Source: Octopus vulgaris (Eukaryota). From it: a DNA stretch of 64,000 bases. The stretch lies in the NCBI GenBank assembly GCA_951406725.2, contig OX597823.1:23498001-23562000 (forward strand), in the 5' to 3' direction. A program made the translations under genes and the position numbers. Under the pieces are notes generated by a model, which made no database searches, was not told where the DNA came from, and saw only the letters and a program-made list of their open reading frames with translations. This document shows positions 2,279 through 61,815 of the stretch, piece after piece (position 1 is the first letter of the stretch; each line of letters begins with the position of its first letter).

Positions 2279-2509
2279 CTAATAAGCCTTTGGAGCTTAA
2301 AAGCGTTAGCATACCCACAAAGGATACTTTCAATCAGCTTAAGGATAAGACTTTAAAGCAGTGCAATGAAGCTTGCCAAAATTATTATGGATGTTATGCT
2401 TATGCATACAGTGAGAAAGCTAAGACATGTGGACTTAGTAATGTGACTCAGTTGACTGATGTACTTAAACCCAACAATGGAAATTGGGATGTATATATAA
2501 TGACACCAG
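2279..2509 (+). CDS. Exon A1, PAN/Apple domain type A
   Basis: ttttccag|CT...CCAG|gtcagt, 231 nt; NKPLELK...[31 protein letters not shown]...WDVYIMTP (C-x3-C-x5-C-x11-C). Confidence 0.9.
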
Positions 2510-60700: not shown

Positions 60701-61815
60701 GTATTGTCAGAGTAGAGATCAGCAACAAAAAGTAGATATGTCAAACAGCTGACCTGAAATGAAATGAGTTTTGCTACTGAAAACTATAATGATGATGGTG
60801 GTGGTGGTGGTGTGTTGATTGTGAAAAGTATTTTTTTTATTGAACTAAATTATTTTATACTGCCCATTACTTAATGCATGAAACCAATATTAAAGTTCAG
60901 CATTTACTGTGGACCAGCCACTATAGAAGTCTCTATGCAGATGCCCTTCATGTTAGAAATATTAACAAAATCTTTCTCAATTATAGCTTAAAAAGAGGCC
61001 TGATTATCTCATGAAACAATTATTTATTGTCTGCTTGTTTGTAAATTGATATTTGTTTATAATGTTAATTTAGCCTAAGCTATGGATTCACAAAAAAGAT
61101 GGTTGCAAGCTGCTTGAGAAAGGATGTAGGGATATATTGAGCATGGATCAGAGAGGAATAGTGAGAAGATATAATAAAAAGAGAAAAAAAAGACAATACC
61201 AATGGAGGAAATGAATTTAGACAAACATCAAGTATATTTAAAGAAAGCTAAACTAAGAATGCCATAAAAATGCGAACTATCCTTTCTTTCTTAAATAGGT
61301 CCCCTTAATTCTTTTTTCATTCCTTGGAATTTACATAGGTCCCACAAGTCAACAATAATTTTATTCATTTTTGTTGTTAAGTTGATAGAGTGAAAGTATC
61401 ATTAGAACTTCATATAAAATATGTTGTGGTATTTGTTCTGGGGCCAATAAAATAAAACAGTCAAGTGTAGGGGCCAATTTAATTGATTAATCCCTACCGC
61501 AAAGATTTGGTTTACTTTCTATGTTAGAAACTATCATTATTATTAATTTCTTTTATCTAAATTTTACTTTAATTCCAGTTGCTGAAAACAGTTTTGTGAA
61601 GATAATTAATGCAAGTCTAGATGTACCTAGGAAAACGTTGCATGAGAAAAATGCAACAGCAGACGCCTGTGCAGAAAAATGTTTATCTGACAAAACTTGC
61701 TTATCATTTGAAATAATTAAAAGAAATGGAAAATGTTATACATCACAGGAAAGTGCAGCTTTCTCCAATAAATTAAAGGAAGCCAAAAATATAGATTACC
61801 ACCAACTAGTAAAAC
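2279..61815 (+). CDS. Partial multi-exon gene: tandem PAN(A)-Sushi-PAN(C) repeat extracellular protein (13 exons in window, 912 aa; N- and C-termini outside window)
   Basis: 13 exons read manually, all AG...GT bounded, all multiples of 3 and phase 1-1, no stops; they join in frame; three paralogous exon classes with invariant Cys/Trp patterns. Confidence 0.88.
2800..3640 (+). mobile_element. RTE-clade LINE fragments including a 3' end with internally repeated UTR
   Basis: GACCCAGGAAGACATGGGATGAGGTGGTCAAGCATGAC ([13 protein letters not shown]) shared with the copies at 29.5 kb and 55 kb; boundaries approximate. Confidence 0.65.
4793..4963 (+). CDS. Exon B1, Sushi/CCP domain
   Basis: cacttccag|TC...AAAG|gtaata, 171 nt; [56 protein letters not shown]; this frame is absent from the ORF track. 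Confidence 0.9.
5205..5880 (+). mobile_element. L1/Tx1-type LINE 3' fragment (zf-RVT region)
   Basis: KLYRYG...[25 protein letters not shown] knuckle, followed by an A-rich tail at about 5885. Confidence 0.6.
6293..6532 (+). CDS. Exon C1, PAN/Apple domain type C
   Basis: aactttag|AT...AAAT|gtaagt, 240 nt; [15 protein letters not shown]...[30 protein letters not shown]...RDYYQRVK. Confidence 0.9.
8560..8875 (+). mobile_element. R4/NeSL-type non-LTR RT fragment
   Basis: [10 protein letters not shown]...[15 protein letters not shown] resembles RT motif DYKKAFDSVPHSW. Confidence 0.55.
8985..10950 (-). mobile_element. RTE-clade LINE (RT), decayed
   Basis: ORF fragments with [41 protein letters not shown]. 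Confidence 0.92.
11749..11979 (+). CDS. Exon A2, PAN type A
   Basis: ctttctag|CT...CCAG|gtcagt, 231 nt; [76 protein letters not shown]; absent from the ORF track. Confidence 0.9.
12207..12610 (-). mobile_element. Octopus-type SINE (tRNA-headed), reverse copy
   Basis: Reverse complement of the SINE at 34137; related fragments at about 4223-4445 and 47320-47540. Confidence 0.6.
12638..12935 (-). mobile_element. 3' end of R4/NeSL-type LINE (same family as 39630-40840)
   Basis: CAAGATTTCTTGC.AATAGAGA...CTAACCTAGAT.CAAGGCT shared with 39630. Confidence 0.55.
13180..15200 (-). mobile_element. Old RTE LINE (APE endonuclease to RT N-terminus), heavily decayed
   Basis: [16 protein letters not shown] APE C-terminal motif, YGPKSS..PLLSKEG.TLLT, IISIIEERK... 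RT N-terminal segments. Confidence 0.65.
15643..15813 (+). CDS. Exon B2, Sushi/CCP
   Basis: aattccag|TT...ATAG|gtaatg, 171 nt; [56 protein letters not shown]. Confidence 0.9.
17554..17790 (+). CDS. Exon C2, PAN type C
   Basis: aactctag|AC...AAAC|gtaatt, 237 nt; [15 protein letters not shown]...[30 protein letters not shown]...RNYYQRIK. Confidence 0.9.
18380..18990 (+). mobile_element. Penelope-like terminal repeat copy with 5' inversion (same family as 24690-25400)
   Basis: About 18381-18740 is the reverse complement of about 24695-25040; about 18741-18985 matches about 25150-25380 directly. Confidence 0.6.
19118..19449 (+). repeat. 41-bp tandem minisatellite (8 units), left arm
   Basis: Unit (GGG/GCA)TTCAAAAGTTTTTACATAATTGTCACATTG(A/G)ATATTAT. 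Confidence 0.9.
19905..21310. repeat. Compound (TG)n/(TA)n low-complexity tract
   Basis: Direct reading. Confidence 0.95.
21652..21850 (-). repeat. Same 41-bp minisatellite, inverted (about 5 units), right arm
   Basis: ATGTGACAATTATGTAAAAACTTTTGAA units. Confidence 0.9.
21990..22584. repeat. (TA)n-rich microsatellite with (CAT)n
   Basis: Direct reading. Confidence 0.95.
22585..24689 (-). mobile_element. Non-autonomous Helitron-like element with nested RTE-derived 3' end and other repeats
   Basis: Minus strand begins TCATATATAAAACTGAAATGCG and ends ACCCACGCG-TAGA-GCGGGT hairpin...CTAG|T; internal ~137-bp tandem duplication 23274-23530. Confidence 0.55.
24690..25400 (+). mobile_element. Penelope-like terminal-repeat family copy
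   Basis: Paralog of 18380-18990; its first ~30 nt recur at about 26574-26605. Confidence 0.5.
25410..26497 (-). mobile_element. mariner (DD34D) transposon, truncated/decayed
   Basis: HTH segment [40 protein letters not shown]; one TIR at about 26472-26497. Confidence 0.85.
26889..28155 (+). mobile_element. RTE LINE 3' portion with three C2H2 zinc fingers
   Basis: [35 protein letters not shown]-x2-C-x12-H fingers. Confidence 0.88.
28905..29720 (-). mobile_element. RTE LINE 3' end with (GAT)n tail
   Basis: [12 protein letters not shown]...[13 protein letters not shown]; (CAT)n at 28905-28938. Confidence 0.88.
31529..31762 (+). CDS. Exon A3, PAN type A
   Basis: tcttccag|CC...CCAG|gtcagt, 234 nt; SDEQVIFK...[31 protein letters not shown]...WHVYIINP. 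Confidence 0.9.
32100..32640 (-). mobile_element. RTE RT fragment
   Basis: [16 protein letters not shown]...YKGK, RSTTD. Confidence 0.8.
32700..32910 (+). mobile_element. Penelope-derived terminal repeat with degenerate minimal hammerhead motif (32776-32810)
   Basis: GTTT-CTGACAA-AGAGC-TCC-GCTT-GAAA-CGTA-AAAC, ending in (TA)n. Confidence 0.6.
34137..34455 (+). mobile_element. Octopus-type SINE
   Basis: tRNA-like head GGAGTGTCTGTGTGGTAAGTAGCTTGCT; body recurs elsewhere in the window. Confidence 0.6.
36111..36281 (+). CDS. Exon B3, Sushi/CCP
   Basis: cattttcag|TT...AAAG|gtaaca, 171 nt; [56 protein letters not shown]. Confidence 0.88.
37700..38090 (-). mobile_element. Penelope-like RT-EN linker fragment
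   Basis: Minus strand reads FVVTHNPRN and [16 protein letters not shown]. Confidence 0.55.
38357..39594 (-). mobile_element. Tc1 (DD34E) transposon, both TIRs and TA target duplication, transposase disrupted
   Basis: TA|CAGGGGTTGGACAAAAT...ATTTTGTCCAACCCCTG|TA (~30-bp TIR); [35 protein letters not shown]. Confidence 0.93.
39630..40840 (-). mobile_element. R4/NeSL-type LINE 3' part with restriction-like endonuclease
   Basis: [10 protein letters not shown] (PD-D/ExK), MHGYVNR segment, zinc-knuckle remnant. Confidence 0.7.
41466..41636 (+). CDS. Exon B4, Sushi/CCP
   Basis: aatttcag|GT...AAAG|gtaatg, 171 nt; [56 protein letters not shown]. Confidence 0.88.
42390..43285 (+). mobile_element. RTE LINE 3' end with (GAT)n tail
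   Basis: Matches the 54.7-55.8 kb RTE 3' region; ends CGTTAAATGATGATGAT. Confidence 0.8.
44809..45045 (+). CDS. Exon C3, PAN type C
   Basis: aattccag|TT...AAAC|gtaatt, 237 nt; [15 protein letters not shown]...[29 protein letters not shown]...RDYYQKVK. Confidence 0.9.
46290..47008 (-). mobile_element. mariner fragment with one TIR
   Basis: TATCAGGTCATCCCATAAGTAATGTC TIR-like end; [27 protein letters not shown] start. Confidence 0.65.
48836..49432 (-). mobile_element. Dong/R4-clade LINE 3' end in (TAA)n
   Basis: [23 protein letters not shown]...[12 protein letters not shown] endonuclease; 3' AATAAAACTACTG(AAT)n. Confidence 0.88.
50672..50905 (+). CDS. Exon A4, PAN type A
   Basis: tttttcag|CA...CCAG|gtcagt, 234 nt; TKKPLILK...[31 protein letters not shown]...WDVYIIQP. 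Confidence 0.9.
51060..55822 (+). mobile_element. Near full-length decayed RTE LINE with duplicated/inverted 5' endonuclease segments
   Basis: [36 protein letters not shown]; (GAT)n tail 55800-55822; APE segment present twice (about 51.1-52.0 and 52.0-52.5 kb) and an inverted piece at about 52500-52690. Confidence 0.88.
55825..56040. mobile_element. mariner-derived MITE (~216 bp)
   Basis: Imperfect TIRs TGAGGGGGTGCTGTAAAGTTACTGGCTTT / AAGGTCAGAAACTTTTCAGTACCCCTCA|TA. Confidence 0.7.
56982..57152 (+). CDS. Exon B5, Sushi/CCP
   Basis: tattccag|TT...AAAG|gtaact, 171 nt; [56 protein letters not shown]. Confidence 0.9.
61579..61815 (+). CDS. Exon C4, PAN type C
   Basis: aattccag|TT...AAAC|gtaatt, 237 nt; [15 protein letters not shown]...[30 protein letters not shown]...IDYHQLVK. 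Confidence 0.9.

Follow-up and report, generated by a model that had tools for sequence, protein, structure and literature searches.

A 13-exon window of Octopus vulgaris as a probable internal part of a long PAN-PAN-Sushi array related to small coleoid GON proteins

Background

What kind of gene is represented by a stretch of octopus DNA in which small cysteine-patterned exons recur, one domain to an exon, at intervals of thousands of bases? The stretch, called the window below, comprises 64,000 nucleotides of Octopus vulgaris (contig OX597823.1, positions 23,498,001 to 23,562,000 of the forward strand), and all positions given here are counted from its first letter. An initial annotation, made from the letters alone, had described 13 exons of a giant protein built of PAN-Sushi-PAN units, for which it recognised no named relative. 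Our answer, to which we assign a probability of roughly 45%, is that these are internal exons of a PAN-PAN-Sushi array of Octopus, which was likely amplified in tandem in a duplicate of a small salivary-gland GON-domain gene and likely codes for a single secreted protein of great length, whose many lysine-rich PAN domains are predicted to tether or cross-link polyanionic glycans. The symmetric phase-1 exons were copied along with their intron flanks, and the modules and the terminal GON domain are, as judged by sequence similarity and a tree, closest to a protein of the form signal-C-A-B-GON, in which C and A are two types of PAN and B is a Sushi domain. All of the parts of the array are known domains.

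Exon structure of the window

A six-frame scan of the window gave three kinds of Cys-patterned frames amid microsatellites and broken retroelements. These were read as 13 exons in the order A-B-C-A-B-C-A-B-B-C-A-B-C, spanning positions 2279-61815 of the forward strand. An AG acceptor and a GT donor bound all 13 exons, the phase is 1-1 throughout, and each exon length (171-240 nt) is divisible by three. When spliced, they give 2736 nt, that is, 911 full codons with zero stops, and the remaining two frames contain 68 and 107 stops. The positions, order, splice ends and phases of the 13 intact exons were thereby confirmed, as was the stop-free frame, although its length had been put at 912 residues. 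One module per exon, as proposed, was also borne out by Pfam: all eight A and C exons exceed the cut-off of PAN_1 (PF00024; 30.6-38.9 bits versus 21.4), and all five B exons match Sushi (PF00084), three of them above the cut-off of 20.7 bits. The five B exons have four Cys at 6, 32, 42 and 55 and a Trp before the last Cys. Four Cys are likewise found in each A and C exon; the classic six-Cys apple domain was considered for these and rejected, since the third outer disulfide is absent.

The four type A PAN exons lie at 2279-2509 (A1, the second PAN of a C-A pair whose C precedes the window), 11749-11979 (A2), 31529-31762 (A3) and 50672-50905 (A4), and the four type C PAN exons at 6293-6532 (C1, net charge +6), 17554-17790 (C2, net +9), 44809-45045 (C3) and 61579-61815 (C4). 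The Sushi, or complement control protein (CCP), exons are at 4793-4963 (B1), 15643-15813 (B2), 36111-36281 (B3), 41466-41636 (B4, the second of the B-B pair) and 56982-57152 (B5). Nine of the 13 exons are matched at 100% (blastp) by the O. vulgaris gene model CAI9728789 (P0008), among which B1 is identical to residues 1253-1308 and A2 to residues 1310-1385, the others being B2, A3, B3, a shortened B4, C3, A4 and B5. Because the frame is still open at the donor of C4, the array extends beyond the window; where C4 would stand, CAI9728789 continues with further A, B and C modules. Within the window, nhmmer gave significant E-values at the 13 exons only, so that no extra module copies were found, a tblastn search with GON domains gave no match, and neither did Rfam. 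The coding density is 65 bases per residue. The intron retroelements are fragments, and only one of 14 long intronic open reading frames (ORFs) passed a Pfam cut-off (RVT_1), in agreement with the earlier description of the surrounding transposable elements as decayed.

The register of the repeat was counted in RefSeq models from O. bimaculoides and O. sinensis, 10 in all. At each of the 52 junctions that follow a C, the next module is A, and the run of B between A and the following C consists of 0, 1, 2 and 3 modules in 1, 35, 13 and 2 of 51 cases, respectively. The C-A pair also heads other cephalopod proteins (P0039, P0121 and P0136); Argonauta hians has the arrangements C-A-C-A and C-A-VWD-C8-TIL-VWA, and Octopus has C-A followed by three WSC domains. 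The pair thus looks like a mobile two-domain module. Since the C-A junction is invariant, the B run is variable and the pair heads unrelated proteins, the unit is PAN-PAN-Sushi(0-3), i.e. C-A-B, and the PAN-Sushi-PAN unit of the initial annotation was shifted in register.

The array in Octopus gene models

Cluster look-ups brought the O. vulgaris models of the array to four: CAI9728789, CAI9728790 (4470 amino acids, aa), CAI9728792 (857 aa) and CAI9728796 (4283 aa). Their combined length is 11,857 aa, with 165 modules that score well, one of which is the GON. They are tiled by A, B and C, and the single GON domain ends the last model, CAI9728796. The array accordingly terminates in a GON domain beyond the window, which is presumably linked to the window exons, and it is more than 10 times longer than the part seen in the window. 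In P0173, modules A, B and C and the GON cover everything but one 36-aa partial C. The O. vulgaris models CAI9728787-796 tend to drop the C exon, with 11 B-to-A junctions versus none in the RefSeq models. A further 2,500 aa or so probably lie in O. vulgaris models outside the retrieved set, and with the omitted exons the coding capacity would be roughly 15,000 aa over about 1 Mb, the latter figure coming from the window's 65 bases per residue applied to this length. In a crude hydropathy scan, a hydrophobic start was seen in none of 14 array models (maximum 1.24), all of which look incomplete at the 5' end, and in five of six small GON proteins (2.2-2.9). What appear to be pieces of one array are annotated publicly as at least 14 separate models from three Octopus species; some of these are SVEP1-like by name, and the last O. 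vulgaris piece is named ADAMTS20-like.

The modules of the array are collinear between O. vulgaris and O. bimaculoides, with 66 reciprocal best pairs of 81-87% mean identity, counting only pairs of at least 70%. In O. sinensis, 30 of 36 modules of LOC115215518 matched O. vulgaris at 90%, and 35 of 36 modules of LOC118764742 did not. The window's own exons have no clear ortholog in the retrieved models of O. bimaculoides and O. sinensis (best 58-79%). A search with exon C1 returned five proteins among 95 candidates, all from Octopus, and a search with a long relative as query returned nine among 4262, namely seven from Octopus, a Sushi protein of Lymnaea and a weak unnamed PAN protein. When the GON-bearing end of the array was compared with 1.84 billion representatives, 685 matches were obtained at E 0.001; among the best 150, which were examined, high-scoring A, B and C modules were combined in one protein only where that protein was named Octopus or already tied to it. 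About 20 short single-module ORFs were left without names, and the 50% clustering could hide arrays of other octopods. In these protein searches, then, the long array was found in Octopus only, as the initial annotation had expected of a lineage-specific protein, and a bilaterian-wide ortholog with the same architecture was rejected. No paper on the array was found in a literature search with small coverage of subscription journals.

Relationship to small coleoid GON proteins

The unrecognised protein of the initial annotation turns out to be an amplified paralog of the named coleoid proteins GON-Abd-1 (R4G2C1), GON-SepT-2 (R4G7D8) and GON-Sep-2 (R4FJA6), whose names reportedly come from the study of posterior venom glands by Ruder et al. 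2013. Together with LOC106874924, LOC115215708 and CAI9728787, they have C, A and B modules in the order of the array; GON-Abd-1 is signal-C-A-B-GON and GON-SepT-2 is signal-C-A-B-B-GON. The C-terminal GON of the array is 61% identical to that of the small coleoid GON protein in O. bimaculoides, and the window exons are 36-57% identical to modules of the small O. sinensis gene. However, the small proteins consist of one C-A-B(B) unit with a signal peptide (291-503 aa), whereas the O. vulgaris array counts at least 164 modules of these types. The array is also far richer in Lys (13-15% in array models) and evolves somewhat faster than the small GON protein (81-87% versus 89% identity between species).

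The best non-Octopus matches to the GON-bearing end, among the best 150 of the 685, were a Sepia A-B-B-GON protein and the GON-Sep-2 cluster, and the Sepia protein as query gave three of 297 candidates, including GON-SepT-2 and GON-Abd-1. When 66 GON domains were placed in a quick tree, that of the array grouped with that of GON-Abd-1 (Shimodaira-Hasegawa-like approximate likelihood ratio, SH-aLRT, 89) within a coleoid clade (99) that also includes one long-branch Sepia fragment; trees of the modules were mostly unresolved. The GON-Abd-1 cluster contains CAI9728787, LOC106874924 and LOC115215708, which are on the same contigs as the arrays of the three species. In O. vulgaris, the small gene CAI9728787 and the array models CAI9728789, 790, 792 and 796 share one contig of 118,226,620 bases, and CAI9728787 is two accession numbers from CAI9728789; judging from accession order and the shared contig rather than coordinates, the small GON gene would be the array's neighbor. 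The O. vulgaris model of the small gene also has neither a C module nor a signal peptide.

Outside the coleoids, a comparable arrangement is that of the molluscan PAN-(Sushi)-GON proteins of Lottia, Patella and Haliotis, which, like the array, carry a stand-alone GON after PAN, and sometimes Sushi, without a protease. These are, however, proteins of 300-430 aa with one PAN, about 30% identity and no array. In gastropods, Sushi repeats are joined to GON in P0069 (Patella vulgata) and P0034 (Haliotis), one of them behind a VERL_C egg-coat domain, so that GON heads occur on other matrix-type proteins as well. The array shares Sushi repeats with SVEP1 and a C-terminal GON with ADAMTS9/20, but neither name fits: P0008, P0003 and P0010 have no vWA, pentraxin, EGF or HYR domains (a separate Octopus locus, LOC115222969, bears the plain SVEP1 name), and P0010 has no metalloprotease or TSP1, so that ADAMTS9/20/GON-1 was rejected. 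SE-cephalotoxin/DECA-CTX was likewise rejected, as the EGF, TSP1 and LDL-receptor A domains given in the available excerpts on these toxins were not found beside Sushi, and so was a gel-forming mucin, which would have VWD and long Pro/Thr/Ser regions, whereas the models are tiled by folded modules and lack VWD. The papers on the 'GON domain' that were listed in the literature search concern, by their titles, ADAMTS or unrelated topics.

Selection and growth of the array

Paralogous exons of like type are 43-66% identical at the protein level, with pairwise ratios of nonsynonymous to synonymous substitution rates (dN/dS) of 0.37-0.98. Wide divergence between the Cys, as first described, is therefore seen, but the exons are not variable everywhere, since the invariant columns number 22/77 (A), 17/56 (B) and 32/79 (C). 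The pooled paralog dN/dS is 0.65 (95% confidence interval 0.50-0.84). All 52 Cys, the frame and both splice sites are retained across the 13 exons. By comparison, an average run of neutral simulation at 0.13 substitutions per site (about half of the lowest pairwise dS) acquired 14.9 stops and lost 14.2 Cys, and the open frame survived in none of 1000 runs. In short, frame, Cys and splice sites are strictly retained while most residues drift, and the constraint on exon residues is weak; the purifying selection suggested earlier holds insofar as the intact frame is not due to chance, but it is not strong at the level of residues.

Around exons of the same type, intron sequence can be aligned for hundreds of bases with 67-77% identity. 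For example, the flank and exon A1 at 1688-2543 on the forward strand are duplicated with 50046-50939 (68% over 911 columns), and like flanks surround the B and C exons. The array thus grew by duplication of genomic segments and not by retroposition. The A-flank identity of 0.66 means little, as the same aligner gives 0.63 for unrelated flanks, and the count of indels in multiples of three (8/37 in exons, 57/217 in flanks) is dominated by aligner artefacts and was not used. A higher-order repeat of about 13 modules exists in CAI9728790, in which A and B modules separated by 12-13 positions have 91-98% identity (P0172, modules 25-34 versus 38-46), and P0001 repeats ABBC-ABC-ABC-ABC. Because the 13 exons of the window share the make-up of this repeat, blocks of about 60 kb may be a recent unit of duplication.

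A stronger statement can be made, that the array of about 1 Mb is one transcription unit for a single secreted protein of at least 15,000 residues (about 200 PAN and Sushi modules plus one GON), that its starting point, within the octopus lineage, was a venom-gland protein of 465 residues, and that it is still growing by duplication of 13-exon blocks; we put this forward only tentatively and consider it rather doubtful.

Predicted structure and possible function

One unit of the window (C3-A4-B5), for which folding had been suggested, was modeled by AlphaFold2 from 44 alignment rows with a predicted local distance difference test score (pLDDT) of 90.6 and a predicted template modeling score (pTM) of 0.76, and the predicted folds are PAN, PAN and, less clearly, CCP. 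The predicted C module superposes on the HGF N-domain (Z 12.1, root-mean-square deviation, rmsd, 1.8, 76 residues aligned) and on the plasminogen PAN (Z 11.9). The predicted A module resembles MIC4-A5 (Z 8.8, rmsd 2.2, 67 aligned), leech anti-platelet protein (LAPP; Z 8.7, rmsd 3.0, 76 aligned) and saratin (Z 5.2), and the predicted B module resembles CCPs of selectin and factor B (Z about 5, rmsd 2.2-2.7, 52-54 aligned). No solved tandem PAN pair superposes on C-A over both domains (rmsd 10-17). A fold of GON-Abd-1 from five sequences was poor (pLDDT 52) and was not used, and a search of the Atlas gave leads only, at 0.90 or below. By sequence, the best matches in the PDB were proteins with tandem PAN/apple domains (apicomplexan MIC4, E 1.5e-7). 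The spliced frame has an isoelectric point of 9.0, 136 Lys in 911 aa and nine N-glycan sequons, and the net charge is +3 to +9 in the C modules and +1 to +6 in the B modules.

The HGF N-domain binds heparin, and heparin complexes turn up among its solved (PAN) structures. With the HGF/plasminogen N-domain the C module has in common its fold, a four-Cys core and a basic surface, although in those proteins one PAN is followed by kringles and a protease-like domain and the identity is 20-22%. Tandem PAN/apple domains serve glycan or protein binding in apicomplexan MIC4, SML-2 and EtMIC5 and in factor XI and prekallikrein, without Sushi spacers or GON. By analogy, the array may act like a multivalent PAN adhesin, while its modules and GON place it with the coleoid GON-domain proteins. 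A single reading frame for about 15,000 aa, spread across some 1 Mb, would have its only GON at the end, as the one terminal head of the polymer, and each C-A pair is predicted to fold as a two-PAN block, the blocks being spaced by 0-3 Sushi domains. We consider avidity the mechanism that fits best: dozens of such cationic PAN pairs could then bind polyanions, e.g. sulfated or sialylated glycans, weak binding at single sites being made strong by avidity, as the analogy with the HGF N-domain and the net charge would suggest. The outcome would be the cross-linking of a gland secretion, most likely saliva, into a gel-forming or adhesive scaffold. Because residue-level constraint is weak and disulfide retention strict, a scaffold fits better than a specific receptor.

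The sole tissue link of the array is the posterior salivary gland, and it runs through the small paralog. In the accessible part of the proteome of that gland (PMC7693380, Table S1, group 1238), the small O. vulgaris GON protein, of 480 aa, is represented by 18 peptides with 43.1% coverage, and seven peptides each are common with R4G2C1 and A0A0L8GSV1. Array accessions and motifs are absent from the ink proteome set PMC10142993 and from the 2023 skin-mucus set PMC10138644, the latter being a weak blank. A0A0L8HQP4 is absent from the accessible part of the salivary set PMC7693380, also a weak blank as the table gives no sequences. The secreted multivalent binder of the initial annotation is therefore retained as the best reading, whereas nothing was found that points to egg capsule, skin mucus or immunity.

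Alternative explanations

Several observations weigh against a single long, glycan-binding protein. Public annotations divide the array into at least four models per species, and CAI9728789 omits A1, C1, C2 and C4 and shortens B4 inside the domain. The signal-peptide exon of the array was not found, and the array is itself represented by neither a spliced read nor a peptide; the salivary match (in the accessible part of PMC7693380) concerns the small paralog only. Accession numbers 788, 791 and 793-795 of the run are outside the retrieved set and could hold gene ends, and the adjacency and orientation of the small gene and the array rest on accession order, not coordinates. The grouping of the array's GON with that of GON-Abd-1 comes from a quick tree and has no starred support. 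As to binding, the A modules are near neutral (net -5 to +3), and a shared PAN fold would not by itself reveal a ligand. For A and C, the dN/dS intervals (0.41-1.0 and 0.45-1.2, respectively) include 1, and the C exons are no more alike than their own flanks (0.78 versus 0.77), so that specific binding sites are not clearly conserved.

Two rather unlikely alternatives, which we consider equally probable, concern the transcript. The exons might form a cassette library from which alternative splicing selects C-A-B subsets. Numerous shorter isoforms of the form signal-(C-A-B)k-GON, differing in their binding surfaces, would result, perhaps using the promoter and signal exon that serve the neighboring small gene. 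All 13 exons are symmetric and could be skipped in frame, no array model has its own signal peptide, the paralog dN/dS of 0.65 leaves space for diversification, and the O. vulgaris models contain the 11 B-to-A junctions that skip C. However, shuffled extracellular modules as a rule occupy symmetric phase-1 exons, neighbors are joined in strict order in the 10 RefSeq models, with B-to-A at 0 of 178 junctions, and the O. vulgaris skips, one of which cuts B4 within the domain, look like prediction errors. Alternatively, several genes of medium size, whose first and last exons have escaped annotation, could lie in tandem at the locus: it is split in three independent annotations, several accession numbers of the run fall outside the retrieved models, and a transcript as long as some 45 kb would be most unusual. 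Against this, only one GON occurs in the 11,857 aa of the O. vulgaris models and no GON exon in 60 kb of the window. Moreover, the models end within modules or run into introns at points that differ between species, and one O. vulgaris model covers three O. bimaculoides models in order.

The remaining alternatives concern the role of the product and are much less probable. It is improbable that the product is itself active in venom, attaching to matrix or haemolymph proteins of the prey by analogy with the leech salivary PAN proteins that bind collagen, even though the small paralog is in the salivary proteome (accessible part of PMC7693380) and the predicted A module resembles the leech proteins named above. 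No catalytic domain was found in the array models, the domains listed for SE-cephalotoxin in the available excerpts are lacking, a megadalton protein would diffuse poorly in prey, and the literature search turned up no activity for any GON-family salivary protein. According to the accessible part of PMC3338439, the GON domain of ADAMTS9/GON-1 acts in the endoplasmic reticulum for transport to the Golgi, and the array might by the same token be a GON-dependent export or packaging scaffold inside the secretory pathway of gland cells. This would leave about 200 PAN and Sushi modules unexplained, and the coleoid GON clade is surrounded by mollusc proteins of the stand-alone PAN-(Sushi)-GON type, so we judge it a very slim chance. 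A silent or decaying duplication, to which the high dN/dS and the closeness of exon and flank identity could point, is the least probable of all in view of the 13 exons with frame, splice sites and 52 Cys kept, the 0 of 1000 neutral runs and the collinear intact modules in O. bimaculoides.

If the reading as one long, secreted cross-linking protein is correct, the locus would provide a datable case of a giant extracellular protein arising by exon-block amplification, with a one-unit gene of the ancestral type still adjoining it in the genome, and an entry point to the coleoid GON proteins, to which no function was assigned in the literature searched. If, furthermore, there is one transcript, its product would be among the largest secreted proteins known and would represent a way of forming a gel or adhesive scaffold in saliva without mucin.

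Other repeats in the window

A decayed LINE-like element is present in two copies of opposite orientation, at 8979-10948 and 52906-54824, which are 76.5% identical over 1980 columns; its RVT_1 match lies on the minus strand at 9380-9850. A tandemly repetitive stretch at 19007-19450 recurs inverted at 21651-21959 (91% over 313 columns), and the pair, possibly a foldback-type element, flanks a TG/TA microsatellite of about 2 kb. A SINE-like dispersed repeat of up to about 320 bases recurs in five copies of 72-87% identity and both orientations, at 22655-22970, 28915-29233, 33857-34051, 43096-43284 and 55496-55820.

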